This document shows, piece after piece, positions 29,678 through 63,069 of a stretch of 64,000 nucleotides of DNA (positions are counted from its first letter, which is position 1; every line of letters starts with the position of its first letter). Source of the DNA: Herpetosiphon gulosus (lineage in GTDB: Bacteria > Chloroflexota > Chloroflexia > Chloroflexales > Herpetosiphonaceae); NCBI RefSeq assembly GCF_039545135.1, contig NZ_BAABRU010000004.1, forward strand, positions 194,427-258,426. Direction: 5' to 3'. A program made the position numbers and the translations under genes. The notes under the pieces are model-generated. The model did no database searches and had not been told where the DNA came from. It saw only the letters and a list, made by a program, of their open reading frames with translations.

Positions 29678-29687
29678 TATGCTGCTC

Positions 29688-30569
29688 CTATTTCACAATC
29701 ACGCGACAAATTCCGCGCCCGACGGTTGCCTTGCCTCCAAGCTGAATTGGTTTTTGCCACAGTCGGGGTAGCTCGGCATTGATGCTTTCTCCTAAGTCTG
29801 TTTTTGAGGCTGGTGGAGCAATCAACATCAAGCCAGTCAAAATCGATTCAGCAGGTAAGGCTTCTTCATACCAAAGTTGGCCATCAGCAACTGTTTTGGT
29901 TTCATCGTTGAGCCGAATGCGGGCGGTTATTTCGGTGGCAGTATTCAAAAGAAAACTAAACACATCATCATTGACGATGCAGAAACGCTCAACAAACATC
30001 GTTTGCCAGTCTGGTGAATCATCAAAAATGCGCGCTTTGAGCCAATCAGCCCATTGGGTCACTAGCTCAGCTTGATCCGATTGAGATTCAAAATCCAAAT
30101 CTTCTAAATAAATGTCCTTGTGCTTTTCTGATTTTGGTAAGTTTGATTTAAGTGCTGATTTTGTAGCAACAAGACATTGATCGCCATCAGGATTTTTGAT
30201 CCAGCTTGGTGGGATGTTTTCAGCCACAAGATTTTTGATTTCGCGGGCAAGGCGATTGAGAATGTAGGGCGAGGTAACCCATGCGAAGGTGCCATACAAA
30301 CTGCGCACCGGCATGCACAACAAGCGCAGATCAGAAAATTGCACAAAGCCTGCATTACCAGTGGCGTTATCTGATGCTGTTCCAAAGATTTCATCTTTAC
30401 GAGCGCCATTGTAACTATCGCGCAATGGGCCTTTGAGCGATGAGCCAGGCAAATAGGGCAAATTGGTGGCTTTTTCGCGGGCAATCGGCAAATCGATAAC
30501 TCCAGCGCCTTGGCCAGTGCCAGCATGAAGTGGTGAAAGTGCATGGACAAAAACGAGTTTGGTGGTCAT
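29688..30569 (-). CDS. cmr4: Cmr4 (type III-B Cas7 backbone RAMP)
   Basis: VHALSPLHAGTGQGAGVIDLPIARE...LPYLPGSSLKGPLRD G-rich loop and Asp-containing catalytic region typical of Cmr4. Confidence 0.85.
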   Translation of the reverse strand: MTTKLVFVHALSPLHAGTGQGAGVIDLPIAREKATNLPYLPGSSLKGPLRDSYNGARKDEIFGTASDNATGNAGFVQFSDLRLLCMPVRSLYGTFAWVTSPYILNRLAREIKNLVAENIPPSWIKNPDGDQCLVATKSALKSNLPKSEKHKDIYLEDLDFESQSDQAELVTQWADWLKARIFDDSPDWQTMFVERFCIVNDDVFSFLLNTATEITARIRLNDETKTVADGQLWYEEALPAESILTGLMLIAPPASKTDLGESINAELPRLWQKPIQLGGKATVGRGICRVIVK

Positions 30570-30639
30570 TATCGTAGCTCCTTCGCAAGATACGCTAAAA
30601 ATGCTTTGAGAACAGTATTTTTTACCTAGTAACAGTAGA

Positions 30640-33584: not shown

Positions 33585-33609
33585 AGCAATCCTCCGAAAA
33601 CTTGTTGGA

Positions 33610-35421
33610 TTAATTTCCATTGGCGAGCTTTTGTGCTTCAGCAATAAATTCGGCAATAATGACTTCATCAGCAAATTGTTGAATAATGGAATGAGGCTTG
33701 GTAGTTTGATCTAATAACAAATCATCAATCATTTTGAGTAACTGCTCGGCAATATCGTCCTCAACTTTTTTACCGTTACTCGTATACTTGCGCTCAATGA
33801 TGCGTTTGGCTTCGGCGCGGAGAATACTGGCGGGCAAGTCTTTTAATCGAATAGATAAATCATGCAGTTCAAAGGCAAAACCAAGGGGAATTTGATCATA
33901 TTGATGTAACTCGATTAGGCGCGTCAGCCGCTCATATAACGAAAACTGACCTTCAGGTTTAGCCCACGATCCGGCGATAATTCGATCTGCACCGCCACGT
34001 TTGCTGAGGTTGATTGCCAACGCATTTTTGCCTTTTATGCCTTTGGCTTGCTGCTCAGCTTTACGCGCTAAATCTAAGGCATCGGATAATGGTTCGAGGT
34101 GATGGACAATTGCAATGCCGACCGAGAGTGATACCATTGGGTCAACAAGCGCCTGTTTAAAAGCAGTGGCTAAATCAGCGGCACAATCAAAGACTGTGGC
34201 TAAACGTTTATTATTACCTTCTTGAATTACGTGACTACTCGTTAGTGGTAAAAATGCTAAAACATCATCCCCGCCCGAATAGACTAAGGCTCCTTGATGG
34301 TTTTCGACGATCGACTTAACATTTCCCGCAAATCTAGTTAATTTTTCGGAAATACCTTGATGTTCATCCATCCCATGGGCGGTATTAATAAATCTTCCCA
34401 TAGCATCGCCATCAGCATGCAGAATGGCATAGTAGGGAATGGGAATTGTAGTATCTAGAAATGGTTTTAAGAAATCTTGCAGATATTTTTGAGCCTTTTT
34501 AAGATCTTCTCCTACTAAGGCATCATTGAAACGCTCGGCAAAGAGAAGTGAGCCGTCATAATACTCAAAAATATCATGGTATATCGGTGTTTTTTCGTTT
34601 TGAATATATTCTTTGGCCGATTCGAGTAATTTTAATGCACAAATATAATCCTTCCATAACCTAGTAACAGCTTTAGGATTTTTCTCACTTTGATCTAGTA
34701 AGGTTAGATAATTAAAAACAGGTGTCGCAGCTATATGTGAGGTGCTTGGAAACCTTGAATCGACACCTTTTTGACCATGCCGTTTGAGAATATCAACGCC
34801 TGATAAATGCTCACCAATATTGATTCCATACTCGCGGTACATGGTTAATTCTTGGCCTTTTAGCTCACGGTTATCAATCACCGATTCACGTTCGCCATCG
34901 ATTGAAGATTTTGGAGCGTTTGTGCCCCACGTCACCGCGCTAAAATTACGGGTATTTTTGCGAGCTGCCATCAGGTGTTCAAGCTGCTCGCGGGTTGCAC
35001 AATACACATCATCACTTGCTAAATGCAATGCAACCCAACTAAATTCAATCAAAGCAGCAATTTGAGCTTTGGCTCGGGTTTGATCAAACACACCAGTTAC
35101 TTTTGCAAACGCGCCATCGCGAATCTCATTTACACGAGTATCTAAGGCTTGTTTGGCGGCATCGGCAATCATTTTGACATCGCCCTCTACCTTGGCCAAA
35201 ATTTTGTTGGGCACATTGAAAGCGCTGTTTGGCGCTAAATCTTGGGCTGGATCGGTTGGATAGGGAAAGATCAAATTACCTTTAGCTTGATAAACGCTTT
35301 TTGCCACCGCTTTGGACAACTCGCTGAGTAGCCACGAACCAAACCAGAGGTCGCGGGTGCGGCGAGCGCTGGCGATGAAATCTTGAACTGGGCCAATCGC
35401 GATTAGGATTAAATGAGACAT
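33610..35421 (-). CDS. cas10: Cas10/Cmr2 (type III large subunit), apparently HD-less, with intact GGDD cyclase motif
   Basis: N-terminus MSHLILIAIGPVQDFIASARRTRDLWFGSWLLSEL (Cas10 palm-domain start). GGDD motif in LVYSGGDDVLAFLP. Length is only 603 aa and I found no HD motif. RBS GGGGAG is present. Confidence 0.85.
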   Translation of the reverse strand: MSHLILIAIGPVQDFIASARRTRDLWFGSWLLSELSKAVAKSVYQAKGNLIFPYPTDPAQDLAPNSAFNVPNKILAKVEGDVKMIADAAKQALDTRVNEIRDGAFAKVTGVFDQTRAKAQIAALIEFSWVALHLASDDVYCATREQLEHLMAARKNTRNFSAVTWGTNAPKSSIDGERESVIDNRELKGQELTMYREYGINIGEHLSGVDILKRHGQKGVDSRFPSTSHIAATPVFNYLTLLDQSEKNPKAVTRLWKDYICALKLLESAKEYIQNEKTPIYHDIFEYYDGSLLFAERFNDALVGEDLKKAQKYLQDFLKPFLDTTIPIPYYAILHADGDAMGRFINTAHGMDEHQGISEKLTRFAGNVKSIVENHQGALVYSGGDDVLAFLPLTSSHVIQEGNNKRLATVFDCAADLATAFKQALVDPMVSLSVGIAIVHHLEPLSDALDLARKAEQQAKGIKGKNALAINLSKRGGADRIIAGSWAKPEGQFSLYERLTRLIELHQYDQIPLGFAFELHDLSIRLKDLPASILRAEAKRIIERKYTSNGKKVEDDIAEQLLKMIDDLLLDQTTKPHSIIQQFADEVIIAEFIAEAQKLANGN

Positions 35422-45851: not shown

Positions 45852-46161
45852 AACATCCTTTCTTGGGATGATCCAAGAGCTTTACAATTAAACATAAAGG
45901 GTCTGGATGATCGTATTCAATATTGAGGAAATTGCAAAAGACCTGTTAAATTTTTCGCCTAAAAAAGTAGCACTGACCCAATTTCAACAGACTAATGAAG
46001 GTCTGAGAATTGGATCAGCGTTCTATTATTTTTTCTTCAATGATCGCCTGATGTGGATAAATAAGCAGGTTTGCATATCTATTCGGGCAATGGGGAGATG
46101 CAATAATATAGACCGTGTAGCGCCTGCCGACCGTGCCGTCTCCACCGTTCTCGCTATTCCC

Positions 46162-46860
46162 TTATGTGCGCATATGGTTGTTCTGAATTGTTCTTATGCC
46201 CACCCGAATGGATTCACTTAGCATAACTGGTACATTCAGTCCAAACTGTGCTGCACGCAGATGCAAATCATGCAACAACCGACACGCCCGTTCAGCGTCC
46301 ATATGAACGATCTCTTCCCACTGCGCTTGGGTTGGATAGATATCCCAGATGCGTGGTTGAGGCAGGGTTGCTGGATCATGCTGCGTTATGACGACATGGG
46401 CGGCATGATAGGCCACAATACTTCTAAGTGTGGCAATCTCTGCCATAGCGAAACCGTGCCGATAGACACGCAAATACAACTGATGAATAAGGCTATGGGC
46501 GAGCTGCGGCTGAGATACGAGAAGCTGCATCCACTGCGAGCCATCAGGAACGCCATCATGGGGCAACATATTGGATGGAAAGTTCGGGTTGTCACCCATC
46601 TTGCTGGAGAGCTGCTGCGCCTCCGCTTCAATGTGCTCAAGTGTAAAAAACTGGGGAGCTGGAGTCGGCGGCAGGCCTGACCGTGATGATCGTCGCCACC
46701 AAATAAGCAGGATGGTACCGATACTCCCAATCGCCATCCATATGAGTTCCCATGCCATGAATGGTTCCTCCTTGTCATGTCTCAGGTAAAACAGCAATGA
46801 TGCGCTCCAGCACCAAGGCAGGGTTACGTCACCATACGCCCATTGTACATAACTCGCCAC
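46162..46860 (-). CDS. Hypothetical protein (N-terminal TM), tRNA-proximal
   Basis: ORF only. A likely internal start is MAWELIWMAIGSIGTILLIWW. No domain recognised. Confidence 0.35.
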   Translation of the reverse strand: MASYVQWAYGDVTLPWCWSASLLFYLRHDKEEPFMAWELIWMAIGSIGTILLIWWRRSSRSGLPPTPAPQFFTLEHIEAEAQQLSSKMGDNPNFPSNMLPHDGVPDGSQWMQLLVSQPQLAHSLIHQLYLRVYRHGFAMAEIATLRSIVAYHAAHVVITQHDPATLPQPRIWDIYPTQAQWEEIVHMDAERACRLLHDLHLRAAQFGLNVPVMLSESIRVGIRTIQNNHMRT

Positions 46861-46997
46861 AACGATGTAGCTCGGTGGTCGAGTCCCTACGATTCGACCA
46901 CCGAGCTGTCTACTCTGTCCCTAGAGGGTTCTGTGATCCAAGTTAACGTATTATCCACATTTTTGACAAAGCATACCCATACCTTAGATGAAATTAT

Positions 46998-47231
46998 GTG
47001 GCGAAGAAAATTCAAGTCACAGATTTGTCCAAGCGAACAAATATCTCTCAATCTCGAATATCGGCTATCAAAAATAACCCCTATATCAACCGCACAAGCG
47101 ATACAATTGCTCGTTTTTGTGAGGCTTTAGGGATCTCGCTGGCCGATTTTGGCGAGTTAGTTTACCTTGAAGATTCAGCGGAAAATTCAGAATCTAAAAT
47201 AGAACTGGCCCAACTTCAGCAGACTAACTAG
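46998..47231 (+). CDS. XRE-family (Cro/C1-type) HTH transcriptional regulator, GTG start
   Basis: VTDLSKRTNISQSRISAIKNN...TIARFCEALGISLADF helix-turn-helix pattern. Confidence 0.55.
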   Translation: MAKKIQVTDLSKRTNISQSRISAIKNNPYINRTSDTIARFCEALGISLADFGELVYLEDSAENSESKIELAQLQQTN

Positions 47232-47254
47232 TGTCTGATAGTTGGGCCAGTTCT
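47201..47254 (+). terminator. Perfect 15-bp inverted repeat (AGAACTGGCCCAACT / AGTTGGGCCAGTTCT) spanning the stop codon of the XRE gene; terminator-like hairpin without a T-run
   Basis: Arms read directly. The loop is 24 nt and contains the TAG stop. Confidence 0.35.
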
Positions 47255-47553
47255 ATTGCGATATACGCTTTGTGTTTGGCGACCGTCAGCTATATCGCGA
47301 GTGGAGTATCCTCTGTAAACTAACGCACCTTACCAATTGAATCGATAAAGGGGACAAGATTCTTGGCATGCTGAGATCGCTGTAGGAATGGTAGCCATTC
47401 ATGCGACCGCTGCCAGTTGTTCAGATCAGGAATACGGTGGTTACCCCTGATGATGTATTGATACCAAGCGACTGTGTTTGACGCAGTGCTTTTATTTTTT
47501 GTGCTTAATGGACAAACGCCCACATGATTACTCAGATGGACGCTTGTTGGTTG

Positions 47554-47629
47554 TGGCTCCCTGACTAGGACTCGAACCTAGGACATGCTGATTAACAGTC
47601 AACCGCTCTACCAACTGAGCTATCAGGGA
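47554..47629 (-). tRNA. tRNA-Asn (anticodon GTT), CCA encoded
   Basis: Reverse complement folds as a cloverleaf: acceptor TCCCTGA/TCAGGGA, D-arm GCTC-AGTTGGTA-GAGC, anticodon loop CTGTTAA, T-arm CTAGG-TTCGAGT-CCTAG, discriminator G, then CCA. Confidence 0.85.
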
Positions 47630-47650
47630 TTATGCATTTGTAAAAAGAAG

Positions 47651-47695
47651 TGGCTCCCTGACTAGGACTCGAACCTAGGACCCATTGATTAACAG
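47651..47695 (-). repeat. 45-nt duplicate of the tRNA-Asn 3' end (from anticodon loop to CCA, 2-4 mismatches in the variable loop): candidate att site of the integrated element
   Basis: TGGCTCCCTGACTAGGACTCGAACCTAGGAC..TGATTAACAG matches 47554-47598 of the intact tRNA. It lacks the 5' half, so it is not a second gene. Confidence 0.6.
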
Positions 47696-48624
47696 GTTCG
47701 CCTAAAATGCGAAGCAAGCACCCTGTTTCAACAGGCTGCTTTGAAGGAGGTTTGGTATTTGTTTGCTCGCCAGCAACACCACATTGCTGCAATGCACTGT
47801 CGCCCTAACCAGCATTTTCTTAGAGATCGTTAACGTTCTGCTGGAGTAGGATATGGTACGCTGAAGCCTAACTTGACTCGACACATTCGAGCTTACCAAC
47901 AGGACTATTGATAACGGGTGCTTTAGTACATCAATAGTCTTCCCATTGGCTCTAGCATGCGCTCGTTGCTAGAAACCCAATAACAGGTGGTTGATGCTAT
48001 GACACGCCACCTGCTGGATAAGCAGGACAGATGCTATGACACGCTGCTTATCACCACGCTTCATGGGAATTCAGGATCATTGAATCCATGGAGCTTTACC
48101 ATAGGTCGTCTGGGAGTCCTGCTCACCGACTTCTTTATTTACGAACGCCGCTTGCGGCCTTCATAATTCAATGCGCTCCGGCTTTAACCAATTCATAAAA
48201 GATGGCCGTTCGGAGATTGACGGCCATCGCTCGCCATCGACACAATGCAAGGTTACGATGGTTGAGTTTGATATACCCATGACCTTGACTCAGTGTGTTT
48301 CCTGTCTTCCTCACACCTATTGGTGAATGACGGTTGGCTTTGTGTTGCCGCCAATTTGGAACGGTAACCCTCGCCACAGCCCTTTGCCAGTACCAAACGT
48401 GTAGGTTGCTTTGCTATACCCAAAAAATGGCGACCGCCATTGCTGGTTGTGCAAGCACCCCTTAACGCGGTGTGTCTGAAGACCTGTCATGAGATACCCC
48501 TTTAGCACCACCTGCGGGGGTATCCCATCACATACTCTTTCCGCTCCGCGCGGCCTCGAGTCGAGTATCTGCGAACGCACACGCTATCCCAGTGGGATAC
48601 CGCGATAGATCGAGGTCATGATTA

Positions 48625-49488
48625 ATGATTACGCAATGGATCGAAGAATATTTGTCCGCCAAAATCGCCGAACGCCGCAGCCCTGCTACCATCACTACCT
48701 ACCGTATCCGGTTAGGACGGTTTGGTGCTTGGGTCGTTGAACAACCCAATCAGGTGCTCACTCGTGCGTTATTGCGGGCCTACAGTGCGTACTTAGCCCA
48801 ACAAAACATCAGCATTGCCAGTCACTATAGTTATCTCAACGATGCCCTCGTCCTCGTGCGCTGGCTTGCTGAAGAAGGTTATATTCAACCCATTAAGACC
48901 GATAAACTCAAACCCCGATTACCCAAGCGCTTGCCTGCCCACTACACGATGGATCAAATTAAGCGCCTCCTGCTGGTTGCCGAGCTTCGTGAAAAAGCCA
49001 TGCTCTGTGTCTTACTGGATACCGGCGTTCGGGTCAGTGAACTGATTCAACTCCGCCGGACTAGCTTTGACTCGGAAGGCTGCGCCATGATTCTTGGCAA
49101 AGGCAGCAAGGATCGGTATATCTGGATTTCATCCGTGACCCAAGAAGTCCTTCGAACCTACATCGCCAGTCGGACGGATACGAACCCTGCGCTGTTTGTC
49201 AGCCATCGCCAGCAAAAAACGCTGACGATTAGCGGCGTACACCAGAGCTTCGATCGCTTAGCCTCCGACGCGGAGATCCGCAACGATGTGCGGCGTTTGA
49301 TTCACTCCTTTCGTGCCACCTTCGCCCGCGAACTGATCAAGAAAGGCCTTGATGCAGAAAGTCTACGGGTGTTGATGGGCCATGAAACGATTCAAATGTC
49401 TCTGCACTATGCACAACTCTCATCCCATGAGGCGACCCAAAATCGGCAAGGCGTGAACCTCCTCGAGAAGGTGGAGTCATGCTTATAA
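48625..49488 (+). CDS. Tyrosine recombinase/integrase (XerC/D-like)
   Basis: N-terminal SAM-like domain. Catalytic-domain motifs DTGVRVSEL (R), KGSKDR (K), HSFRATFA (HxxR), LMGHETIQMSLHYAQLS (catalytic Y). Confidence 0.85.
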   Translation: MITQWIEEYLSAKIAERRSPATITTYRIRLGRFGAWVVEQPNQVLTRALLRAYSAYLAQQNISIASHYSYLNDALVLVRWLAEEGYIQPIKTDKLKPRLPKRLPAHYTMDQIKRLLLVAELREKAMLCVLLDTGVRVSELIQLRRTSFDSEGCAMILGKGSKDRYIWISSVTQEVLRTYIASRTDTNPALFVSHRQQKTLTISGVHQSFDRLASDAEIRNDVRRLIHSFRATFARELIKKGLDAESLRVLMGHETIQMSLHYAQLSSHEATQNRQGVNLLEKVESCL

Positions 49489-50304: not shown

Positions 50305-51900
50305 ATGACGACACCGTTATATGCGCAGGTGCGCACTGCTATTCAGCAGTTGCTGGCAGGCCAGACCCTTGACCTGACCCGTGATTGGGGCGAATGGCTA
50401 TCGATGATCCAAAGTTTAGTCTATGCCTTTGAACAGGGCGGCTCGGCTGCCGTCCAAACCGCACTGGAAACCGCGATGCGGGTTGATAGTCGCGTTGCGG
50501 CGCTGGTGGTTGACCCTGCACCACCCACAGCCTTGCGCACCATGCCACCCTTACCGAGTGAATTGAGCAAAGCCATCCGGCAGCACGGCGCATGTGGCCA
50601 CTGGCTCGATACCTATATCGGCTATGCCAGTTATGCCAGTCCGGTCACGCCCGCGATTTTTCATGAAGCGGCAGGCCTCTTTTTGGCGGCGACCGCGATC
50701 GCGCGGCGGCTGTATCTGCAAATTGGCGAAACCTACTACTACCCCAATGTCTATGCGCTATTTGTGGCTCCTCCTGGGCGCTATGCCAAATCGACGGCGA
50801 TGAAGGTCGTCGAGCGGGTATTGCGTCGCGCAGGTCTTGGCCATTTGCTACTACCCGACAAAAGCACGCCCCAGTCGCTGCTCCAGCAGTTTTCGACCGT
50901 CATTCCTGACAAACTGGACAGCTACAGTGATTACGACCGTGAGCAATGGCTACTCGCTCGCGCTCAAGCGGCCCAACGGGCATGGTTGCTTGATGAAGCG
51001 GGATTTCTCTTCAGCGATATGAAGAAAGAGTATATGGCCGAGCTGCTCTCGCTCTTACTCAAGCTGTTTGATAATCCCGAATACTTGGCCCACGAAACCA
51101 TCACCCATGGCCGAACAACCATCCGTGATGCCAGTCTTTCATTCCTTGGCGCAACCACACCGAAAAACATCGAGGAGCATCTGCGCAGCGAAAAGCTGTG
51201 GGATGAAGGCTTATGGAGTCGCTTCGCGATTCTGATTCCTGAGCACGACCCGATTTATGCCGAGTTTCCTGATGAACTCACCATGCCCCCGGCGCTGCTC
51301 GATGGCCTGAAACACCTCGATTTGCTGTTTCCGAAGCCCGACGCTGAACTGGTTGATGACGTACCCGAGGAAAATATCAAGCGCTTTGTGCGGATCTATA
51401 ACGAGCATCCCCCCAGCGCTATCCGCCTCGCGCCCGGGGTCATGAGTCTCTGGAAACGCTATGACAAGGCCGTCCGGTTTGACCTGCCCAATAACGGCTT
51501 ACCCGACACGCTGTATGCCAGCTATGCCCGTTTCCCGGGGCATGTGTTGCGGGTGGCCATGATTCTGGCCGCCATGGATTGCCCTGAGTTACCCGTGATG
51601 ATGCAGCTCGATCACCTCAAACGCGCAATCACGATCGTCGAGCGCTGGCGCAGCGACTTGCATCGGATTTGGAGCGATGGGATTCGGAGTGAAGAAACCA
51701 AGCTGGGAGATAAATTGGTCGGCATGCTCAAAGCCTCGCTCTCGGGCTTGACTGTGCGCGATATCTGCCGCCAAACCAACCAATCCAAAAAAGAGATCAC
51801 CGAAGTCCTTGAAGTCTTACGCCTCGCAGGCCAAATTGACGTGCTGGAGACCAAAGCCGCCAACGGTCGGGTGATGCAACTGTGGAGATATAGCGCATGA
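50305..51900 (+). CDS. Hypothetical replication-associated protein (DUF3987-like; family assignment tentative)
   Basis: 531-aa ORF just upstream of the iterons and the primase gene. No Walker A. Family recall is weak. Confidence 0.45.
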   Translation: MTTPLYAQVRTAIQQLLAGQTLDLTRDWGEWLSMIQSLVYAFEQGGSAAVQTALETAMRVDSRVAALVVDPAPPTALRTMPPLPSELSKAIRQHGACGHWLDTYIGYASYASPVTPAIFHEAAGLFLAATAIARRLYLQIGETYYYPNVYALFVAPPGRYAKSTAMKVVERVLRRAGLGHLLLPDKSTPQSLLQQFSTVIPDKLDSYSDYDREQWLLARAQAAQRAWLLDEAGFLFSDMKKEYMAELLSLLLKLFDNPEYLAHETITHGRTTIRDASLSFLGATTPKNIEEHLRSEKLWDEGLWSRFAILIPEHDPIYAEFPDELTMPPALLDGLKHLDLLFPKPDAELVDDVPEENIKRFVRIYNEHPPSAIRLAPGVMSLWKRYDKAVRFDLPNNGLPDTLYASYARFPGHVLRVAMILAAMDCPELPVMMQLDHLKRAITIVERWRSDLHRIWSDGIRSEETKLGDKLVGMLKASLSGLTVRDICRQTNQSKKEITEVLEVLRLAGQIDVLETKAANGRVMQLWRYSA

Positions 51901-52185
51901 GAAGTGTCATAAGTGTCATGAAGTGTCATAAACGGTTTATGACGCTAAAAACCCACTTGGGGAGCCGCTTCCTTGAGAAGTGTCATAGTGTCATAAGGGG
52001 ACATGTCCAATTTAATAAGGAACATGTACGCGAGACCGATGAGACCACACAAAATCAAAAAATAGCATGACACTTCTGACACTATGACACTTCTCCGTTC
52101 TATCCCATTGGAAAGCCCTAAATCGTTGATTTTGGCTGCATGACACTTCTCTGACACTTCATGACACTTCTCGTGGGAGGGTTCA
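51901..52185. promoter_or_regulatory. Iteron field: at least 10 copies of AAGTGTCAT / ATGACACTT in direct and inverted orientation (candidate origin or primase/initiator binding sites)
   Basis: Direct copies at 51901-51930 and 51977-51996. Inverted copies at 52067-52096 and 52141-52172. Read directly from sequence. Confidence 0.55.
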
Positions 52186-53322: not shown

Positions 53323-53394
53323 GACCTGAATGTTTTCTCCTGATATTTAGCGGCGATGGGTGGGTGTATCCCATCCATCGCCGAGGAGCCTGTT

Positions 53395-54384
53395 ATGACC
53401 ACTCTCGTCCATGGGGCCAATATTGGCCATGGCTATGTCAAATATACGATCAATGCTGGTGATCACGAAGAAACAATTATTTTCCCAGCGCTGGTGGCTC
53501 CCGCCAGTAGCACCGATGGCAATCTGCACGATGTGCCCACCGTGGACGTTCACGGCACACTCTGGTGGACAGGTGATGATGCCCTGTTGCACCCCGCGCC
53601 CTTATCACTCCGCTCGCAACAACGGCTCTACGATCGCCACATTATCCCTGCGCTGGTCAAAGGAGCGTTACAGCGCCTCAAGCAGCCCTGTGGTGGCGCA
53701 TGTGTGACTGGACTCCCTGCGGCCTGGTCCGGCGAACGGGATTTAGCGGTGGCCTTGGGGTCGCGGCTGCGAGATGCGGTTGCAACCCAGTACTATCACG
53801 GCACAACCCTGAAAACGGGCATCCGCGTGATTAGTGAACCGCTTGGCGCGTTGTATGGCGTGTTGCTCGACCCCAGTGGGGCGATTACCACTAGTGGCTA
53901 TGAGATGAGTCGGGTTGGGGTGATTGACTTGGGCCACAACACCGTGGATGCCTGCATTGTCCAAGCGATGAATGTGGTGCCCGAAAGTGCGATTAGCTTC
54001 GAGTTGGGTAGCGCCAGTCCGCTCCAGCAGCTCCAGACCAAGATTAGCGGGCGCTACAACCTTGATCTGACTTTACACGAAGTTGATCACGCGGTGCGGG
54101 CAGGCTATGTACGGGTCGCGGGTGAGGAATGCGATCTGCCAACCGGATGGGATCGCCCATGGCTGGCCAATGGCCAACAGGTCGCGGATGCGCTTGTGCG
54201 AGCGTGGGGCAGCGGCGCGAAACTGGCGGCGATTATTGTGGCGGGTGGTGGTGCAGAAATGCCCATGCTGGTTCAAGCGATTCACCAGCGTTTCCGCCAA
54301 ACGATCGTTGCACCCAACCCACAAACGGCGATCGCCCGTGGCTATGCCCGCCGTGCGCGGCGCTACGAGGAGTTTGGCCAATGA
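53395..54384 (+). CDS. Actin-like ATPase (ParM/StbA family) segregation protein
   Basis: Phosphate-1-like VHGANIGHGYVK and phosphate-2-like GVIDLGHNTVDA motifs. RBS GAGGAG upstream of the ATG at 53395. Confidence 0.55.
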   Translation: MTTLVHGANIGHGYVKYTINAGDHEETIIFPALVAPASSTDGNLHDVPTVDVHGTLWWTGDDALLHPAPLSLRSQQRLYDRHIIPALVKGALQRLKQPCGGACVTGLPAAWSGERDLAVALGSRLRDAVATQYYHGTTLKTGIRVISEPLGALYGVLLDPSGAITTSGYEMSRVGVIDLGHNTVDACIVQAMNVVPESAISFELGSASPLQQLQTKISGRYNLDLTLHEVDHAVRAGYVRVAGEECDLPTGWDRPWLANGQQVADALVRAWGSGAKLAAIIVAGGGAEMPMLVQAIHQRFRQTIVAPNPQTAIARGYARRARRYEEFGQ

Positions 54385-54773
54385 GTTTTGATGAACGCCT
54401 GACGACGCGCAGCTCCGGCGTGCTGAGCGCGATGATTGCCAGTCTCGGCAATGAATCCGCCGTACTTCGCGCCCTTGTGATTATTGGCTTGCACACCTGT
54501 GGCAAAAACATCCAGCTATTCACTGCCGATGCCTTGGCCAGCGTCGCCCGCCTTGATGATCACGCCGTGCGGGACACTTTGCTGGCGGTGCTGATGAAAC
54601 CTGTTGAACAAGCGTTGCACCCACGTTCCCCCAGCGTTGAACCCGTGTTACACGCCAGTACACCATCTGTTGAACACACGTTGCACACCAGTACACCACC
54701 TGTTGAACAAATCCCAGTTCCGCCGCCCACGACGCTCGATCTTCCGCCTGATCCCGAGTACCAAGATGTGTAA
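54381..54773 (+). CDS. Hypothetical protein, translationally coupled to the ParM-like gene (ATGA overlap); possible ParR-like adaptor
   Basis: Start ATG overlaps the upstream stop. Pro/Thr-rich C-terminal tail with repeated PSVE(P/H)xLH. Confidence 0.35.
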   Translation: MSFDERLTTRSSGVLSAMIASLGNESAVLRALVIIGLHTCGKNIQLFTADALASVARLDDHAVRDTLLAVLMKPVEQALHPRSPSVEPVLHASTPSVEHTLHTSTPPVEQIPVPPPTTLDLPPDPEYQDV

Positions 54774-55644
54774 ATGAAAGGGAACTGCTATGACTTCACC
54801 TTCAGCCGTGCTGGCTCGGATTGAAACAATCACGCGTGTTTTGCAGGACGTGGTTCAAGGATTACAGGGAAAGCCCTTCCACTGGGGCGGAGGGCAACGC
54901 GAACACTGGATGCCCTTACTGGCAACCATGGGCTTCCATTTGATCACGAAAACCCAAATCGCCAAACAAGGCTATCGCTTAAAACGGGGGGCGCAGCCTG
55001 TGGGCACAGTCTACTACGACGCACCCTTGCAACGCTATGCCGATGTCTATCTCCGTGAATGCCAGTGTGTCGCGCTTACTGATTCCGCATCGGCAGATGA
55101 TTCGGCGCTTGACCAACAAAAAACCGCCGATGAATAAGCATCGGCGGCGTGCATCACCGGAGAACACCAAAGTGATGCAGCGCTAGTATACCAAAGGAGA
55201 ACACCATGACAACATCGGATGTGTTATTTGATCTGCACCGCCTTGATCCTAGCCGCAAACTCATCAAAGGCCTCGCCTGCACGCTCGGCTGGGGCAATAG
55301 CATTGTTACCACCGTCTCGACCCTGAGCGATTTTCAGCATTGGCTGTGGGGAATTCGTGATTATCGCGGCATCCTCGCGGGGCTGGGGGTCGCGCTGTTT
55401 CTCTTCCTTGGCCAACTCTATACCTTGCGCCGGACTGCGTGGGGCTATGGCTGTTTTCTGGCTCCCGATGCCATGATTACGGCCTATAAATGGTGTGAAT
55501 GGTTGTTTTACCCCATCGCCTACAAACTGGCTTCCGGCCTGCCAGCGCTGGCCCTCGCGTGGGGTGCAGGCTTGGCGCTCGGGGTTGTCTCAGCGCGGTG
55601 GCCCGAATATCTGGCCTTTGGCCGCACTGTACAGGAGCATCCGC

Positions 55645-56757
55645 ATGGATATTAATTCGCCGTGGCTCTATCCGTTGATTTTTCTGTTTGCCTGTAGTTT
55701 TGTTGGCACGTTTCTGTGGTGGCATGCACGCACCCCTACCAGCGAACGCCGCCATGCCGCTGCGCCTACCGCACCCGTGCGTGCGACAAATCCGGCACGG
55801 CCAGTCGTGGTGGAGCGTCCGCGTGGTGAAACCTCACCGGAACCCACGACCACCAGTTTATCAACCTATTCATGGCCCATGCTGCTCGACACCTTGGCCA
55901 AGCGCCCGCATATTGGGATTGCTGGCCCCTCGCGCCAAGGCAAGTCGGTACTGAGTATGGCCCTGACCTATCTTCGCGCCGTCGATGGTCACCAGCTGGT
56001 GATTCTCAACTCACATGCGCGACCGAATGATTACGGCGGCTTGCCACAAATCTATGACTATCCGGCGATCAACCGCGTGATGAAAGCGTTGCTGGCTGAG
56101 CTAGGGCGACGCAAGGCCGCTGCGGCCACAGGCGTGAATCATTTTGATCCGATTACGGTGGTGTTGGAAGAAGCGCCTGATGTCATGAGCAAGGTGCATG
56201 GCGAAGATGGCTCAGCCGCCAAACCTAAAGTGCCTGTTGCGCAGCGCTTTGTGGGCGAAATGCTCCGCCAAGCCGCCAAGTATCGCATGCATCTGATCCT
56301 TGTGACCCAAACCACCTTAGTCAAACCACTGGGCATTGAAGGCGATAGCGAAGCACTCGATAACTTGCTCTGGATTGCGATTGGCGATCGGGCCTTGGAG
56401 AAAATGAAGTCGCCCCTCGTTGCCCCATGGCCTGCGGCGATTGAGTGGAATTGTCAATGGTTTTGGTGCAATCGCGAACCGGCGTGGATGTTATCGACCC
56501 GCCCGATTGACCCAGCACGCCTGTGGCGAGTTCCCGATTCCATGGGAGATCCCGCAGGTGATTCCCCGCTTGGAACCATGGGAACTAGCGATGAGAGCCT
56601 GATTGATGAGGCCACGTTGACCGATGTCATCCTGATTACCAAGCTCATCCTTGCTGGCAAAAGTGGCAACGAAATTATTGACAGCTTGGGTGGCAAACGC
56701 ACGCGCCGTCTCAGCCAAATTCGCCATGTCAAGCAGGTGCTTGATCTTGGCGCTTAA
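55645..56757 (+). CDS. Membrane-anchored P-loop ATPase, FtsK/SpoIIIE/TraB-like (candidate DNA-transfer protein)
   Basis: N-terminal TM (WLYPLIFLFACSFVGTFLWW), Walker A GIAGPSRQGKS, and a hydrophobic Walker-B-like HLILVTQT. RBS AGGAG upstream of the ATG at 55645. Confidence 0.5.
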   Translation: MDINSPWLYPLIFLFACSFVGTFLWWHARTPTSERRHAAAPTAPVRATNPARPVVVERPRGETSPEPTTTSLSTYSWPMLLDTLAKRPHIGIAGPSRQGKSVLSMALTYLRAVDGHQLVILNSHARPNDYGGLPQIYDYPAINRVMKALLAELGRRKAAAATGVNHFDPITVVLEEAPDVMSKVHGEDGSAAKPKVPVAQRFVGEMLRQAAKYRMHLILVTQTTLVKPLGIEGDSEALDNLLWIAIGDRALEKMKSPLVAPWPAAIEWNCQWFWCNREPAWMLSTRPIDPARLWRVPDSMGDPAGDSPLGTMGTSDESLIDEATLTDVILITKLILAGKSGNEIIDSLGGKRTRRLSQIRHVKQVLDLGA

Positions 56758-57554: not shown

Positions 57555-58490
57555 ATGACAACCCATACCTCCGTTGGCCTTAATCCCACTGAGCTGCACA
57601 TCCTGCTGCTCGTTGCTCGGCTTGGTCGCTTGCTGTCACGCCACCTGCGCACCGCGTGGGGCCATCCGTTTACCGTGACGATTCAGACCGTCAATCGCAC
57701 GTTGGCCAAGCTGGTTGATGCCAAGCTGCTGATCTATTGCGAACACTTTCAATCGCATGGCTATGATCCGCGTGGTGCGATCGGGTGGACACGCCATGGC
57801 CGCTTATATAGTCTCACGCCCCTTGGCTGGGAGATCGTCAAACAGGCCTTTCCCATGCTGGAGGAAGGCAGTGAGCGGCTGGCTCCCACGATGTTTAATC
57901 CCCAACATCAAGCCGAACACCAAATTGAGTATGCCGAGTTCATCACCAGCTTGATTCAGTCGCTACCGTATGTGCCTGGTATTGTCGGCATGAGTAGTTA
58001 TATTGAGATGGACTTAGGCCCAACCGCACGGCCACGCGCTGATGGCATTGTTGTGGTGCGGCGCTGGGCCGATGCGACGCAGCCCGATTCTGAGCGCTCG
58101 TCGTTGTATCCATGGCTTGGGATTGGCCAACAGCAAGGGCAAATTGATCAACTGTATGCGATTGAAATCGATCGGGGAACCGAGGAGTTGAGTATTATTA
58201 CGGGGAAAGCCCATTCGTATGGGGAATTATATCGATCGAAGTATTGGGAAGGGCGCTATAGCTGGCCTTTAATTGCCTTTACCGTGCCGAGCGAACGCCG
58301 CAAACGGGCCGTGCTTGATGCGTGGGAAATCGGCTGGCCCGGCAGCCAGCTGCTCATTGCGACCATCGACGATGTGCGTGAGTCGGGTATTCTCACGCCG
58401 ATATGGACGACCCAGTACACCAAGCAAGGCCAACGGATTCAGCAATCGCATCGGTTTTTGCGAGCTGCTTGGTTTGAAAAGGTTATATGA
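57555..58490 (+). CDS. Hypothetical wHTH protein (possibly replication-relaxation family)
   Basis: N-terminal segment LHILLLVARLGRLLSRHLRTAW...VNRTLAKLVDAKLL resembles a winged helix. Family assignment is weak. Confidence 0.35.
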   Translation: MTTHTSVGLNPTELHILLLVARLGRLLSRHLRTAWGHPFTVTIQTVNRTLAKLVDAKLLIYCEHFQSHGYDPRGAIGWTRHGRLYSLTPLGWEIVKQAFPMLEEGSERLAPTMFNPQHQAEHQIEYAEFITSLIQSLPYVPGIVGMSSYIEMDLGPTARPRADGIVVVRRWADATQPDSERSSLYPWLGIGQQQGQIDQLYAIEIDRGTEELSIITGKAHSYGELYRSKYWEGRYSWPLIAFTVPSERRKRAVLDAWEIGWPGSQLLIATIDDVRESGILTPIWTTQYTKQGQRIQQSHRFLRAAWFEKVI

Positions 58491-58519
58491 TTCAATAATC
58501 ATTTAAAATAAATTACATT

Positions 58520-59521
58520 TCATAAATATTCATCTATATCTATAATTATATTTTTATTTTTCTTCATATATAATTTGAATTCATCAATAAAATTTTCAGT
58601 GGCAAAAATAAGAGTTAATATATCGTTTTTATTTATTTCTATATCAATGAATGCCTCGTGAACTATTTTATGTCTTATTGTTATATATTTAGCTATTACT
58701 TTTTTGATATTTATTTCTTTTTTATTGAATATTTTGTTTACATTAAGTATTTTCTCTATATCTATCTCAATTTCATTAAATGCGCTTATTATTTTTGGAA
58801 TATTTTGAAATGATGTTAATCTTGCATATTCATCTCCAATTGTTACCTTTTTTGTATACATATTCTTGAAGCTATGTAAATCTAATTTTTTTAATATATT
58901 CTTCTGAATAGACTCTTGGTTATTGACATAAATTACAAAGAAATTTTTTAGAAACTCTTCTATTGAAGATACTATGTAAGGAATGATTAGATTATTTATA
59001 ATAATACCTTTATCAAATCTTAACATCCATGGTAAATTCTCTTTTTTATAATTAAATTCATCAATATCATCTTGAACAGCTATTTTTGATGTAATTATAT
59101 TATTTATGAAATTTCTATAGACTATAGAGCATCCGCGTTCAATAACAGTAAATTCTGGTATTTCATAATAAAGATATGAACACACTCCTTCTTGAGGATT
59201 ATATAGACTTCCTAGAAAAGCTTTTTTTAATTGTTTAATTACATTATTTTGTGCCTCCAGATCTGCAAAAGAACGTCCAGCATTTGAATAGGCATGAAAA
59301 ACTACTTTTGTATCCTTGGGAACATTTTCAACCGGATTATAGTCAATAAATAGCCAACATCCACGGGTAGACTCATAATTATTCTCATTGAACCAGTAAT
59401 AACTTAGACCTTTGTAACCAGAATAATAGGTTGCTTTTTTCCATCCTAATGGAAATATAATTTTTTCAATTTGCCGACGAGTAGGCTGATTTTTAGTTCT
59501 AAGAAATAAATCAATACTCAT
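58520..59521 (-). CDS. AT-rich hypothetical protein (333 aa) with C-terminal Rx4H (HEPN-like) motif
   Basis: About 25% GC. C-terminal ...AKYITIRHKIVHEAF... contains R-x4-H. No other recognised domain. Confidence 0.5.
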   Translation of the reverse strand: MSIDLFLRTKNQPTRRQIEKIIFPLGWKKATYYSGYKGLSYYWFNENNYESTRGCWLFIDYNPVENVPKDTKVVFHAYSNAGRSFADLEAQNNVIKQLKKAFLGSLYNPQEGVCSYLYYEIPEFTVIERGCSIVYRNFINNIITSKIAVQDDIDEFNYKKENLPWMLRFDKGIIINNLIIPYIVSSIEEFLKNFFVIYVNNQESIQKNILKKLDLHSFKNMYTKKVTIGDEYARLTSFQNIPKIISAFNEIEIDIEKILNVNKIFNKKEINIKKVIAKYITIRHKIVHEAFIDIEINKNDILTLIFATENFIDEFKLYMKKNKNIIIDIDEYL

Positions 59522-59600
59522 TACTTGCTCCTAGAATCTGGAATTAATGATTTAGGTTCTTTCTGATAATCCATGCTAGACTATCCGACAGGAGGTACGC

Positions 59601-60135
59601 ATGGCTCTCCATGAATTGACCAATACCCAATTTGCCGTGATTGCACCGATCCTACCGACCGAAACCTGCCGTGGCCGCCCATGGAATGACCACCAATGCG
59701 TGGTTAATGGCCTATTTTGGCAACGCAATACCATGATTCTATGATGCGATATTTCCGACCGCTTTGTACTCTGGTAACACGGCGGAACCTGGGAATGCAT
59801 CCTTACCTCCTTGCATATGTCCTTAAATGCCATGGATGCCTCGAGTGGCAGTAATTGACCATCGATGGCATGCTTATTTGCGTCGGTCGTACCGTTGCGG
59901 CGCATGAAAAAAATCTTTGATGACACATGAATCCACTAACCAAACCCTCGGATGTTTCTACGGCAGATTCGGTACCAAATCCACCTCCTTTAGTTTAGAT
60001 GGTCGTGTACATCCGTTATCCTCCTGTCTTACGCCTAGACAGATCCACGAAGGCACCGCGTTCGAAACCCTGATCGTTATGCTCCAGCAGCACGGACAAC
60101 CCGGCACCCGTCCACACTCATTGGTTGATGATTGA
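59601..60135 (+). pseudogene. Degraded IS5-family (IS427/IS1031-like) transposase remnant, multiple frameshifts/stops
   Basis: MALHELTNTQFAVIAPILPTETCRGRPWNDHQCVVNGLFWQ matches the conserved N-terminus of IS5-family transposases (L..EQW..IEPLLP...GRPR.D.R.VLNGI). Downstream fragments lie in other frames. Confidence 0.6.
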
Positions 60136-60791
60136 GGCGATGATGACCGTTGTATCAGACAGTGGACTCAGCAATATGGGATTCGGTCGGTGATTCTGCC
60201 ACGCCGACGACGCGGTGAATGCAAGGCTGTCCGTCCAGTTTCTATGGCTAACAGGCTTGCCATGCCCGCACTGTGGTTGAGCCCGCCAATGGCGGGCGCA
60301 AGGAGTGTCGGTTGGTTGAGAAGAGAAACTGGCTCTGAATTATCTTGTATTGATGCATCTAGCCATGATTCAACGATTGGTTCGTATCATTGTACCGTTC
60401 ATATAGCCATCCTGAATTATAAGGCCTACGGTAATATGCTATTAAAGTAAAGGTGCTGTTTTTGATCATTTTCGTGGTATTCTGAATCTTTCCAATGGAA
60501 GCTTAAGGAATTAAATTATCAAACAAAATATATTCTCCAGCCTCTTCCTACTGTCAATGTGTTGTGATTAACTGGAGTCAGTGTGCCTTTAGAATCCATT
60601 ACTGCCAATACATCCCATGATATCCAAACGTATCTGGATACAAGATCACTATCAAAATGAGGATAACAGTACTTATCAGAACTTACTTTATACGTTTTAA
60701 TTTAACTATTTAACTAGTTGGCTTGACATACCTGATAGGATATAGCAACTAGAATTACACCTTAATCTTATAAAAACATCATAACATTTCT

Positions 60792-62846
60792 ATGCACTTG
60801 AAGGAGTTACCTATGATCTCAGATGTAGAGAAAAAACGTTCTATTTTACTTACGACAAAACTAAGGTTTTCTCCAGAAATTCAACCTTTAAAACAGACTG
60901 TTATTAATAATATTATTTTACAAATAATTTATACAAATTCATCATTAAATAGGTGGAGGATAGAAACTATTAATGAAAAAATCTATTCTCAGATTGGACA
61001 TCAGATTAATAATGATGATTTAAACTTATCTTTAAAAAGTCTTATTTCTCAAGAAATGATTGAGGAACTAAATAATGGAGGGCATAAAACATATAAACTA
61101 TCTGATATAGGAAAAAAGTTAATAGATAAGCATCAAATTGAGGCAGAGAATAGGTTGGATAGGGTTCTACATGAACTTTTTTCGAATTCAGAAATACACT
61201 CATCTTTATATACCGATCCTTTCCTTGATGTTATATCAAGAATATTTTCAAAAATAGGTGAAGATAATGCTCGTTTAATAAAAGGAGATTTATCTAATGA
61301 AGATTTATTGAATTATATATCATTACCAGATATAATAAAGGGGGTAGTTTTTAAATCTTCAAATATTAATTATGCTGTATTTGAATCTGGAATAAATAAT
61401 TTTTTTAGAAAAAATGACCCTGATTTTGATATTATTAAATGGAATATGGCTCAGAATTATTATATAACAAAATCTTTAGGAATTGATCCTTCTGGATCAA
61501 TCCTTTCTAAAGAATTATATGAAAATGCTGTTTTCTATCTTGATACTAATATAATTATTACAGCATTAGAAGAAAATCACGAGTATCATCATAGTTTTTT
61601 ATTTTTTATTGAAATGTGTAGTAAATTGAATATATCAATCAATATTTGTCAAATATCACTAGATGAAATGAATGAATGGTTATCATATCAGAGAGAGATA
61701 ATAGAAAAAACTATAAGCAATATACCTGATGGACTGTCAAGTAAAATCAATTCACTGATATATGATATATATCTTAAGAAAGTAGAATTACATAATTATG
61801 AAAATATAGATGATTTATTTACTAGTTTTTCTAATGCATCAAATAAGTTAGAGTCTGAATTTGAAATAAAATTATTTCATAATGATTGGTTTTCTAATAA
61901 TAATGATAAACCGGAAGTGAATAATTTTGCTGAAAAGATTAGAGATAGATATTTTAAAACTCGTAATAGAAAAAAATCTCGTAGAGCACCAAAACATGAT
62001 GCTTTATTATTAATGTGGATAGAAAAAGAACGGAGAGAAAAATCTTTAAACACATGGCTAATTACAGCTGATTCTTCTTTACCAGGTATAGTACCTAATA
62101 GATCAATAGATTCTTCTTTAGCTATTACTATGGATGCAATTATCCAATGGATATCTCCTGTAAATATTTCCAATGAAGATGAATTTAGTTCTATATTCTC
62201 AGAAATGATAAAATTAAGACTATTTCCTCAGAATAAAATATTTATGCTAGAAGATTTTCTTATTTTTCATGAAATGAATATTTCATGCAAAGAGTTACCT
62301 ATTGAAGATGTAGAACAATGCATTAGATATATTAAGAGGAATATTCCAAATATGGATATATCTAAATCATCTGATAGAGAAAGATTACACTATGAGATGA
62401 GTAGATTTTTTAAAGATCCAAGTCGAAAATATCAAGAAGAGTTATCAAAGCTCGAAAGAGAGAAATCAGAAATGAGTATGAATTTTGAAAGAGAGAAATC
62501 AGAAATGAGTATGAATTTTGAAAGAGAGAAATTAGAAATAAATAATTCTATTTCTGATTTTAGAGAAAAACTATCTAATATGGAAAGTGAAATAAATATA
62601 AATAAAATAAAAAGTATAGTAAATAAAAAAATGTTCAGAAGTGTGTTGCTACTTTTTATAGTAATTTCTATAACAGTCTACATTGCCGAAGGAAACACCT
62701 TCTACGAAAAGATTAGTGGGTGGTGGCAAGTGTATACTTTTATCTTTGGAGTATGGATTTTTCTTGTTTCTATTTGGATAGGGAAAGAAGGACTTAGAAC
62801 GCTTGGATGGCCATTTACCAAAATTTTTGGAATAGAAGATAAATAA
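60792..62846 (+). CDS. AT-rich large hypothetical protein (684 aa) with PIN-like motif and C-terminal double TM; candidate defense/abortive-infection cargo
   Basis: About 24% GC. NAVFYLDTNIIITALEE resembles a PIN/DUF4935 first strand. Tandem EREKSEMSMNF repeats. C-terminal hydrophobic helices (VLLLFIVISITVYIA, VYTFIFGVWIFLVSIWIG). Confidence 0.55.
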   Translation: MHLKELPMISDVEKKRSILLTTKLRFSPEIQPLKQTVINNIILQIIYTNSSLNRWRIETINEKIYSQIGHQINNDDLNLSLKSLISQEMIEELNNGGHKTYKLSDIGKKLIDKHQIEAENRLDRVLHELFSNSEIHSSLYTDPFLDVISRIFSKIGEDNARLIKGDLSNEDLLNYISLPDIIKGVVFKSSNINYAVFESGINNFFRKNDPDFDIIKWNMAQNYYITKSLGIDPSGSILSKELYENAVFYLDTNIIITALEENHEYHHSFLFFIEMCSKLNISINICQISLDEMNEWLSYQREIIEKTISNIPDGLSSKINSLIYDIYLKKVELHNYENIDDLFTSFSNASNKLESEFEIKLFHNDWFSNNNDKPEVNNFAEKIRDRYFKTRNRKKSRRAPKHDALLLMWIEKERREKSLNTWLITADSSLPGIVPNRSIDSSLAITMDAIIQWISPVNISNEDEFSSIFSEMIKLRLFPQNKIFMLEDFLIFHEMNISCKELPIEDVEQCIRYIKRNIPNMDISKSSDRERLHYEMSRFFKDPSRKYQEELSKLEREKSEMSMNFEREKSEMSMNFEREKLEINNSISDFREKLSNMESEININKIKSIVNKKMFRSVLLLFIVISITVYIAEGNTFYEKISGWWQVYTFIFGVWIFLVSIWIGKEGLRTLGWPFTKIFGIEDK
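62454..62540 (+). repeat. Two and a half tandem 33-nt repeats (GAAAGAGAGAAATCAGAAATGAGTATGAATTTT) within the AT-rich gene
   Basis: Exact duplicate units at 62454 and 62487, with a diverged third copy. Confidence 0.8.
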
Positions 62847-63069
62847 TTTAGTGAATTATTTATCTTCTATTCCAAGCCCTTGATAATTACAGTGATCAAG
62901 GGCTTCCTTAACTATATGTAGGTTCTATTTGATCATTCAAGATATCGCATACCGTCGCAAAACCTCATTGATATGCTGATTGGGACGGTATTCTTGGTCA
63001 TTTTCTCATGTACATTATGGTATTTGTGCCTTCCCAAGTCCCAAGGGAGGCTTAAGGATTTATCAGTAT

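Follow-up and report, generated by a model that had tools for sequence, protein, structure and literature searches.

Introduction

In the Staphylococcus aureus pathogenicity islands (SaPIs), 6-12 iterons lie directly downstream of rep in halves that oppose each other across an AT-rich center, and the Rep protein, which binds them through a C-terminal winged helix, is self-loading and thought to load as two hexamers (PMC9371898). Iteron plasmids follow another plan, with 17-22 bp direct repeats and a WH1-WH2 Rep that recruits the host's DnaA and DnaB (PMC4980987). The proteins of the DUF3987 family are MCM-related replicative helicases of superfamily 6 (SF6) with a winged helix-turn-helix at their C-terminal end, and are paired with primases (PMC4889955); AgaPH, which belongs to the family, has 5'-3' helicase activity and binds the primase-polymerase that goes with it (PMC11724360). 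Here we describe a field of short repeats from Herpetosiphon gulosus (Chloroflexota), lying in a stretch of 64,000 nucleotides of contig NZ_BAABRU010000004.1 (positions 194,427 to 258,426). This whole stretch is called the window below, and positions are counted from its first letter. The field fills the intergenic space between the gene of a 531-amino acid DUF3987 helicase and that of a primase, inside an integrative element of about 11 kb (Table 1). Judging from sequence comparison and a predicted helicase structure, it is probably the vegetative replication origin of this element, with repeats that would be read by the winged helix of the adjacent helicase.

A nested dyad of short repeats

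Over its 64 kb, the window contains the heptamer AGTGTCA 14 times without mismatch; in whole-window shuffles the mean is 4.3 and the maximum 10. Eleven of these are packed into the 266 bp between 51903 and 52168, and three lie elsewhere. Their orientation is fully segregated: five plus-strand copies (starting at 51903, 51912, 51922, 51979, and 51987) occupy the left side and six minus-strand copies (52068, 52077, 52085, 52141, 52152, and 52162) the right, for which the chance is 2/462. The copies fall into four clusters (A and B on the left, B' and A' on the right), in the pattern 3+2 followed by 3+3. The start and end positions of mirror partners add up to 104069-104071, placing the dyad center at 52035 +/- 1 bp. 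The field is a nested dyad centered on this position, and if the degenerate AAGGGGACAT that follows cluster B is counted, the array becomes 6+6. The original prediction, made from the letters of the window, had placed a dense iteron field between the two genes, and this is borne out. It had also seen five direct copies immediately after the stop codon; the count was correct, but the copies do not form a single run, since clusters A and B are separated by 48 bp. The inverted copies running up to the primase ribosome-binding site (RBS), predicted to number at least five, are six in groups of three. The array lies close to both neighboring genes: there is an overlap between its first copy and the TGA that ends the 531-amino acid gene, and its last copy ends 6 nt 5' of the primase RBS GGGAGGG (52175-52181; ATG at 52186).

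The central spacer, previously described as AT-rich, deserves this name only in part, with two patches of 25% GC (about 52005-52029 and 52046-52066) around a GC-rich core. Its halves are conserved to very different degrees. The block at 51997-52036, with the palindrome GGACATGTCC (51999-52008), AATTTAATA, and ACATGTACGCGAGAC (52022-52036), is near-invariant in all seven Herpetosiphon elements (7/7), whereas the right part (52037-52066) is highly variable among them. TACGCGAGAC of the center is also present in L006, a relative with 55% identity (relatives are cited by locus number). A priming start site and the site of a second factor are both possibilities for this asymmetry. Outside the center, an equivalent of the convergent pair made by the third A copy and TATGACGCT is kept in L004, L006, L007, and L008. 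Spacers are conserved between clades, and of their motifs the conserved right-arm one, TATCCCATTGGAAAGCCCTAAA, alone is retained as a claim. A second spacer motif, in direct orientation on both arms, was considered and rejected: direct and inverted similarity are about equal within an element, and neither is significant in the Herpetosiphon elements.

No other repeat array was found in the element. Within the field there is no DnaA box at up to one mismatch, a simple sigma-70 scan gives no convincing promoter, and Rfam returns only sub-threshold chance matches. Among the relatives, a near-consensus DnaA box (CTATCCACA) stands at the cassette center only in the phage-type L004 (4357-4365) and L008 (7832-7840).

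Linkage of the array to the helicase gene

The comparative set holds 47 related loci; these represent about 14 clades, with protein identities as low as 28%, and contigs were scanned for relatives with an alignment of 9 sequences. In this set an array of the same kind lies against the DUF3987 gene. For 14 clade representatives, the 300-bp window richest in 7-mer repeats was then located without bias over each whole locus. It abuts the DUF3987 gene in 12 of the 14 (two of these 12 being weak), with a chance zone of 4.5-18% of each locus. The two misses, L022 and L024, do not lack an array, since one of 4-5 copies lies at the stop codon. The first repeat overlaps the helicase stop in the window and likewise in 10 clades, and in three phage-like clades the array lies directly upstream of the gene.

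The sequence of the repeat changes from clade to clade. It is AGTGTCA in the window and its close relatives, nnGTCAC in L005 and L013, AGTGTTGA in L006, AGTGTAGA in L004, L008, and L014, AGYGTAGCA in L007, GTGTCGAA in L015-19, AACCTGTCA in L020, GTGTAGTA in L021, GTGTAGCA in L022, L024, and L025, GYGTAGC in L042 and L043, TGTCACA in L027-29, L031, and L037, ACTGACA in L030 and L033-36, and GTGCAGAC in L039. The whole cassette of about 280 bp can be aligned down to 38% protein identity with its cluster positions kept, and over the same range the variable part of the repeat shifts in all copies together.

The gene past the array varies. It encodes a Toprim primase or, where a PrimPol is fused to the N-terminus of the helicase, an HU/IHF-like protein; in the phage-like contigs it is the helicase gene itself. 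These contigs have the cassette on the upstream side of the helicase gene, which directly adjoins the primase gene, and ParM is not detected in them. ParM was detected in Herpetosiphon elements only; none was detected in the cassette-bearing L004, L007, L008, L015-19, L029, L035, L039, and L043, while L005 and L006, short contigs with little or no sequence past the primase, stand outside this count. Across the sequences compared, the helicase is the only constant partner of the array. Searches of a phage collection and a plasmid collection gave one weak match and none, respectively, leaving no annotated origin for comparison.

Some relatives show further features. In the PrimPol-fused clades (L029, 5156-5459; L035, 5641-5946; L032, from about 3028 onward), the next gene looks, by eye only, like one for a small HU/IHF-like DNA-binding protein (VERYLETLAEEIANGEWVDIPYIGKVQVV), and this neighbor would hint at a bending factor at the origins of these clades. 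L024 and L025 have a split array, with five plus and one minus GTGTAGC at the helicase stop (7348-7402) and a mirror half of one plus and five minus copies 4.6 kb downstream (11975-12027), beside a 400-bp region with four other short repeat families. In L022, 10 GTCACCA copies at 2290-2532, grouped into five palindromic pairs (GGTGAC…GTCACC), lie 3.7 kb upstream of the gene for the helicase and have no relation to the array beside that gene.

The DUF3987 helicase and its primase

The 531-amino acid protein scores for DUF3987 alone, with 79 bits against PF13148 (curated cut-off 27) and an E-value of 5e-22. Its AlphaFold 2 model (predicted local distance difference test, 85.6) has an AAA+ core followed by a C-terminal winged helix at about residues 463-529: a first helix (463-477), H2 (484-491), H3 (495-507), and a wing formed by a beta hairpin (511-529). 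N492 lies in the turn preceding the recognition helix H3. When the model is compared with the PDB by Foldseek, the best matches are MCM subunits and archaeal Orc1/Cdc6-origin DNA complexes. MCM subunits dominate at E <= 1e-4, with 8rif_7 at the top (3.6e-7), and the structural similarity to MCM and Orc1 is remote (template modeling score about 0.4, 11-17% identity). A PDB sequence search with the protein alone finds no match, and the family profile matches winged-helix domains only, weakly (E >= 0.003) and over the C-terminal 60 residues. The association with a primase that is typical of the family is also seen, through the Toprim primase gene downstream here and through PrimPol or DUF3854 fusions in homologues.

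Co-variation of helicase and repeat

Each clade has its own repeat along with its own helix 2-turn-helix 3 sequence, and identical winged helices share a repeat. In L001 and L010, all 77 core positions are identical (77/77) against 76-83% for the rest of the field, which suggests that the AGTGTCA core is under purifying selection. Base 8, immediately after the core, switches in concert in both arms among the seven Herpetosiphon elements. The window and L001 have T there, L012/L009, L005/L013, and in part L010 have C, and L002 is G-rich at this base. Residue 492 of the helicase goes with it, N with T, H with C, and T with G: it is N in the window and L001, H in L012/L009, L010, and L005/L013, and T in L002. 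The protein tree reads ((window, L002, L012), (L001, L010), (L005, L013)), and the T/C and N/H split cuts across it; the joint switch must therefore have occurred at least twice independently. Among 317 variable columns in nine element proteins, such a tree-incongruent split is found only at helicase residue 492 and primase residue 122, and the primase correlation breaks once L005, L013, and L002 are added. No column of ParM or of the 130-amino acid open reading frame (ORF) tracks the repeat change. The residue-492/base-8 pair is the strongest available evidence for the predicted reading of the repeats by the helicase winged helix.

In H. llansteffanensis (L010, 7597-7882), all left-arm copies are AGTGTCAC and the right arm is mixed, with three C and three T. 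Concerted evolution of the repeats seems to have been caught here in progress, after the N492H change.

Checking whether the iterons co-vary with the upstream protein in related elements had been proposed along with the field itself, and the outcome is positive both at the clade level and, within Herpetosiphon, at that of a single residue and a single base. The original prediction had left the choice between a replication origin or initiator-loading site and a site for primase loading. Every in silico test available supports the former as the likely role of these dyad iterons. The primase alternative does not hold up: arrays persist in PrimPol-fused relatives that have no Toprim primase, and over the full set of seven Herpetosiphon elements the repeat is not followed by any column of the primase.

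A model for origin function

In the model that we propose, the 11-12 (A)AGTGTCA(T) copies would be sites for the C-terminal winged helix of the DUF3987 helicase encoded directly upstream. Because the sites face each other in mirror halves (3+2(+1) and 3+3 about 52035), they would recruit two helicase rings in opposite orientation. The rings would melt the AT-rich patches of the center, about 70 bp in length, and load themselves without a separate loader; the Zn-ribbon/Toprim primase from the gene directly downstream would then prime synthesis. Occupancy of cluster A' probably throttles the downstream replication genes as well, because A' ends 6 nt before the RBS of the primase gene and, in the phage-like relatives, before that of the helicase gene.

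Several observations weigh against this model. The clade-level co-variation is confounded by common descent, and the only case free of this confounding, that of residue 492 and base 8, rests on seven elements. A distant DUF3987 protein, YfjI of Escherichia coli K-12 (L048, 2758985-2761173, in the cryptic prophage CP4-57), has no array on either side. This rules out an array rule for all DUF3987 proteins, and from the sequences at hand the rule would apply to the helicase subfamily and not to DUF3987 as a whole. The center is just moderately AT-rich (40% GC). The 5'-3' polarity of AgaPH is unlike that of MCM, so the loading geometry cannot be taken over from MCM as it stands (PMC11724360). At least four Herpetosiphon genomes have the element at the same tRNA-Asn, and no direct repeats of 12 nt or more are found between its left end (46.8-48.65 kb) and 58.3-64 kb. 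Given this shared location in several species and the lack of an attachment repeat on the right in the search made, the element may no longer excise or replicate, and may be a fixed inactive resident. Finally, every array has an RBS next to it, so that an operator role could be the primary one.

If the origin model is correct, it gives a widespread family of domains of unknown function a concrete role, that of an origin-recognizing initiator-helicase, together with its cognate DNA site, and this in the Chloroflexota, a phylum with few genetic tools. For Herpetosiphon vectors, the roughly 3 kb of helicase, origin, and primase would be a candidate minimal replicon. The winged-helix/repeat pairs found in nature, including a single-residue, single-base switch, offer an inexpensive and directly testable system for MCM-like site recognition and loading. 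A more ambitious proposal can be advanced tentatively. The DUF3987 subfamily would be a large and previously unrecognized group of bacterial self-loading MCM-like initiators with portable origin cassettes of about 280 bp. Residue 492 and base 8 would be the first entry of a recognition code, and a 6+6 mirror with a gap of about 70 bp would load two opposed rings; in Herpetosiphon, the array would perhaps also be a ParM centromere.

Alternative roles for the field

The field could instead be an operator only, a transcriptional control region through which the helicase's winged helix, or some other repressor, turns off the replication or partition genes that follow, with the origin lying elsewhere. 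The last cluster of every cassette ends a few bases before the next RBS or start (that of the primase here, that of the helicase in L004, L007, and L008), and iteron-plasmid initiators commonly autoregulate through their repeats. We nevertheless consider it unlikely as the whole explanation: the element contains no further array, and the proposed binder is homologous to replicative helicases. Moreover, 11-12 sites in two mirror halves around a center of about 70 bp go far beyond what an operator needs, and they fit the SaPI layout (PMC9371898). Operator and origin roles are not mutually exclusive.

Two genes downstream of the field is a gene for a ParM-like actin, overlapped by a small ORF. 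The field might therefore act as a parC-like centromere and promoter for this actin, bound by a ParR-like adaptor encoded by the 130-amino acid ORF, the more so as the element offers no other candidate centromere array. As a primary function this is very doubtful. The constant partnership with the helicase would rule it out, since the same cassette stays with the helicase gene in relatives with no detected ParM, and neither ParM nor the 130-amino acid ORF tracks the repeat. The halves are also mutually inverted, unlike the parC of plasmid R1, in which 2 x 5 direct repeats flank the promoter. A secondary centromere use might exist in the Herpetosiphon elements alone.

Little can be said for a structural role, in which the long imperfect palindrome forms a cruciform or hairpin in DNA or RNA, as in a single-strand origin, a primosome site, or an attenuator; we give it little credence. 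Folded as single-stranded DNA, the field reaches -59.2 kcal/mol (z = -8.6 against shuffles), but such a value is automatic for any inverted array. A hairpin needs mirror complementarity, not the same 7-mer 3+2 times per arm; in L002, four left copies have changed from T to G and the right arm is uncompensated. Rfam, as noted above, holds no match.

It is highly improbable that the left half is coding, although a 57-amino acid ORF (51897-52070) overlaps it, with an ATG overlapping the helicase stop (ATGA). The frame is open, the gene finder called an ORF in L002 and L003, and the ATGA overlap with a short ORF also occurs in L005, L006, and L015. However, H. geysericola has no gene call there, and neither the length (57, 46, 32, 44, and about 26 amino acids) nor the sequence of the ORF is conserved. 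The repeats, spaced by 9, 10, and 8 bp, fall in different frames, and the same sequence recurs inverted past the end of the ORF. Because the frames differ, the inverted copies lie outside, and the ORF is unconserved, selection is on the DNA; repeats belonging to a coding region, the finding named beforehand as fatal to the iteron field, are thus not what is seen. Just as improbable is a clt-like transfer locus read by the P-loop protein at 55495-56757, after the TraB/FtsK-type transfer of actinomycete integrative elements: the element does encode this Walker A protein and a Replic_Relax protein, but the former fits no FtsK/TraB model and is absent from cassette-bearing relatives, and the array goes with the helicase gene.

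The integrative element and its surroundings

The element runs from a tRNA-Asn gene at about 47.5 kb to 58484, in the order integrase, DUF3987 helicase, repeat field, primase, ParM-like actin, further genes, and Replic_Relax protein (Table 1). Homology with H. geysericola, H. llansteffanensis, and H. aurantiacus spans the same interval, and its loss at 58484 defines the right end. The pair formed by the tRNA-Asn and its partial copy is found in these three species too; it is probably a scar of the element's attachment site on the left. A more distant relative of the element adjoins tRNA-Phe.

Table 1. Features of the integrative element and its repeat field, in window coordinates.
Feature	Position	Strand	Remarks
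tRNA-Asn	47554-47629	-	Partial 46-nt copy of 3' half, 91% identical, at 47650-47695, 20 bp away
Tyrosine integrase	48625-49488
DUF3987 (SF6, MCM-like) helicase, proposed initiator, 531 aa	50305-51900	+	Pfam PF13148
Iteron field, candidate origin	51901-52185	none	285-bp intergenic cassette, dyad center 52035
Outer left cluster A	51902-51929	+	3 copies of AAGTGTCAT, start-to-start 9 and 10 bp
Degenerate inverted copy TATGACGCT	51938-51946	-	Convergent pair with third A copy
Inner left cluster B	51978-51994	+	AAGTGTCAT and TAGTGTCAT, 8 bp apart
Degenerate third B copy AAGGGGACAT	51995-52004		Follows cluster B
Central region, proposed unwinding zone	51995-52066		72 bp; 40% GC against 55.5% for the element
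Inner right cluster B'	52067-52092	-	3 inverted copies, cores 52068, 52077, 52085
Conserved non-iteron spacer motif TATCCCATTGGAAAGCCCTAAA	52101-52122		Recognizable in L001, L005, L004, L007, L008 cassettes
Outer right cluster A'	52140-52169	-	3 inverted copies, cores 52141, 52152, 52162
Zn-ribbon + Toprim (DnaG-type) primase, 378 aa	52186-53322	+	Pfam PF08273, PF13155, PF01751; PHROG 47 DNA primase
ParM-like actin (actin-like protein, ALP-like)	53356-54384		PF17989, PF21522, PHROG partition protein
130-aa ORF	54381-54773		Small, overlaps ParM-like gene
P-loop protein, 420 aa	55495-56757		Walker A; no FtsK/TraB model match
Replic_Relax protein	57555-58490

Near the left end, GATGCTATGACACGC occurs twice (47994-48008 and 48031-48045), on either side of a short palindromic stretch (CTGCTGGATAAGCAGG); the integrase gene begins about 600 bp downstream. 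Both occurrences had been noted in the original prediction as carrying the iteron core. They are indeed present, but the shared core is not upheld: relatives conserve the pair as GATGC-N2-3-GACACGC, and the iteron-like T is not kept. The pair is likely a binding site for a recombination or regulatory protein, separate from the origin repeats.

Further differences between genomes were observed around these genes. A segment of about 350 bp (54773-55120), with a 115-amino acid ORF (54790-55137), is missing from all related Herpetosiphon elements and is therefore a window-specific insertion. The region 46020-47495 is extra in the window relative to H. aurantiacus. Directly past the right end of the element lies a low-GC island (58500-63000, 25-40% GC against about 52% around it) with ORFs of 333 and 684 amino acids, for which there is no Pfam-independent assignment and no PADLOC match; the longer ORF contains 33-bp tandem repeats at 62454-62552. 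Because H. geysericola has a Type ISP restriction enzyme at this position, the island looks like a variable cargo or defense hotspot. Two other low-GC stretches (11000-13000 and 27000-35000, 37-45% GC) suggest further horizontally acquired regions.

Comparison with known systems

The locus can be set beside several described systems. With Orc1/Cdc6 and MCM at the origins of archaea and eukaryotes it shares an AAA+ core and a C-terminal winged helix, here in a model, and the inverted sites would suit two opposed rings; the difference is that a single protein would take both the initiator and the helicase roles, and the similarity is remote. As in plasmid R1 with its parC, ParR, and ParM, about ten short repeats precede an operon that includes a ParM-like gene, but in relatives the array follows the helicase and not ParM, and its halves are inverted. 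An R1-type parC centromere was rejected because the array does not travel with parM/parR, as seen from cassettes in relatives where ParM is not detected.

Iteron plasmids (pSC101, P1, F, RK2, and R6K, with Rep_3, TrfA, or pi) also have initiator repeats beside an AT-rich region and, as is probable here, coupled autoregulation. The sites described here differ in being 7-9 bp long and inverted between halves, in a field with no DnaA boxes, and no Rep_3-type protein is found among the ten element proteins scanned. The iteron-plasmid type of origin was rejected on these grounds, the repeats being too short and inverted and both the Rep_3-type protein and the DnaA box missing. In the satellite phage P4, the alpha primase-helicase, a fusion of an archaeo-eukaryotic primase (AEP)-like primase and a superfamily 3 (SF3) helicase, recognizes octamer repeats at ori and crr through its C-terminal winged helix. 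The second mirror half-array of L024/L025, 4.6 kb from the first, is reminiscent of ori plus crr; the window differs in having just one field, which is compact, and in lacking a second site.

In the putative origin of Cch2 from the staphylococcal cassette chromosome mec (SCCmec), also an integrative element, a helicase binds specifically to short repeats just downstream of its own gene, but there are three 5-nt direct repeats only and the helicase is of the D5/Primase_Cterm (SF3) type (PMC7581432). The likeness to the SaPIs (SaPI1, SaPIbov1/SaPI2, and SaPI5) goes further. The origin adjoins the helicase gene of an integrative element, and a primase gene is adjacent (PMC9371898, PMC7581432). 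Short repeats form two opposed halves around an AT-rich center, here with 5(+1) plus and 6 minus copies about a 72-bp center of modest AT content. The helicase has a C-terminal winged helix, predicted by AlphaFold 2 in our case, and repeat specificity differs between islands just as, by correlation only, it does here from clade to clade. On the other side, SaPI Reps are SF3 helicases or, in the SaPIbov1 type, SF6 helicases related to the DUF927-containing Cch (PMC7581432), whereas the present one is a DUF3987 protein. The SaPIbov1 and SaPI5 primases are AEP-type (PMC7581432), and in SaPIs pri lies upstream of rep; the primase described here is of the DnaG type, its gene lies downstream of that of the helicase, and the origin separates the two. 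SaPI repeats measure 5-6 bp, those described here 7-9 bp in four clusters, one outer and one inner on each side, and the host is a member of the Chloroflexota. The likeness to the SaPI origin would be one of working principle, with no homology of the helicases claimed, and the general picture already set by the SaPI Reps is unchanged. By this analogy, a self-loading initiator-helicase with an adjacent iteron origin is a known design, and what is new is the helicase family and the phylum in which it appears.

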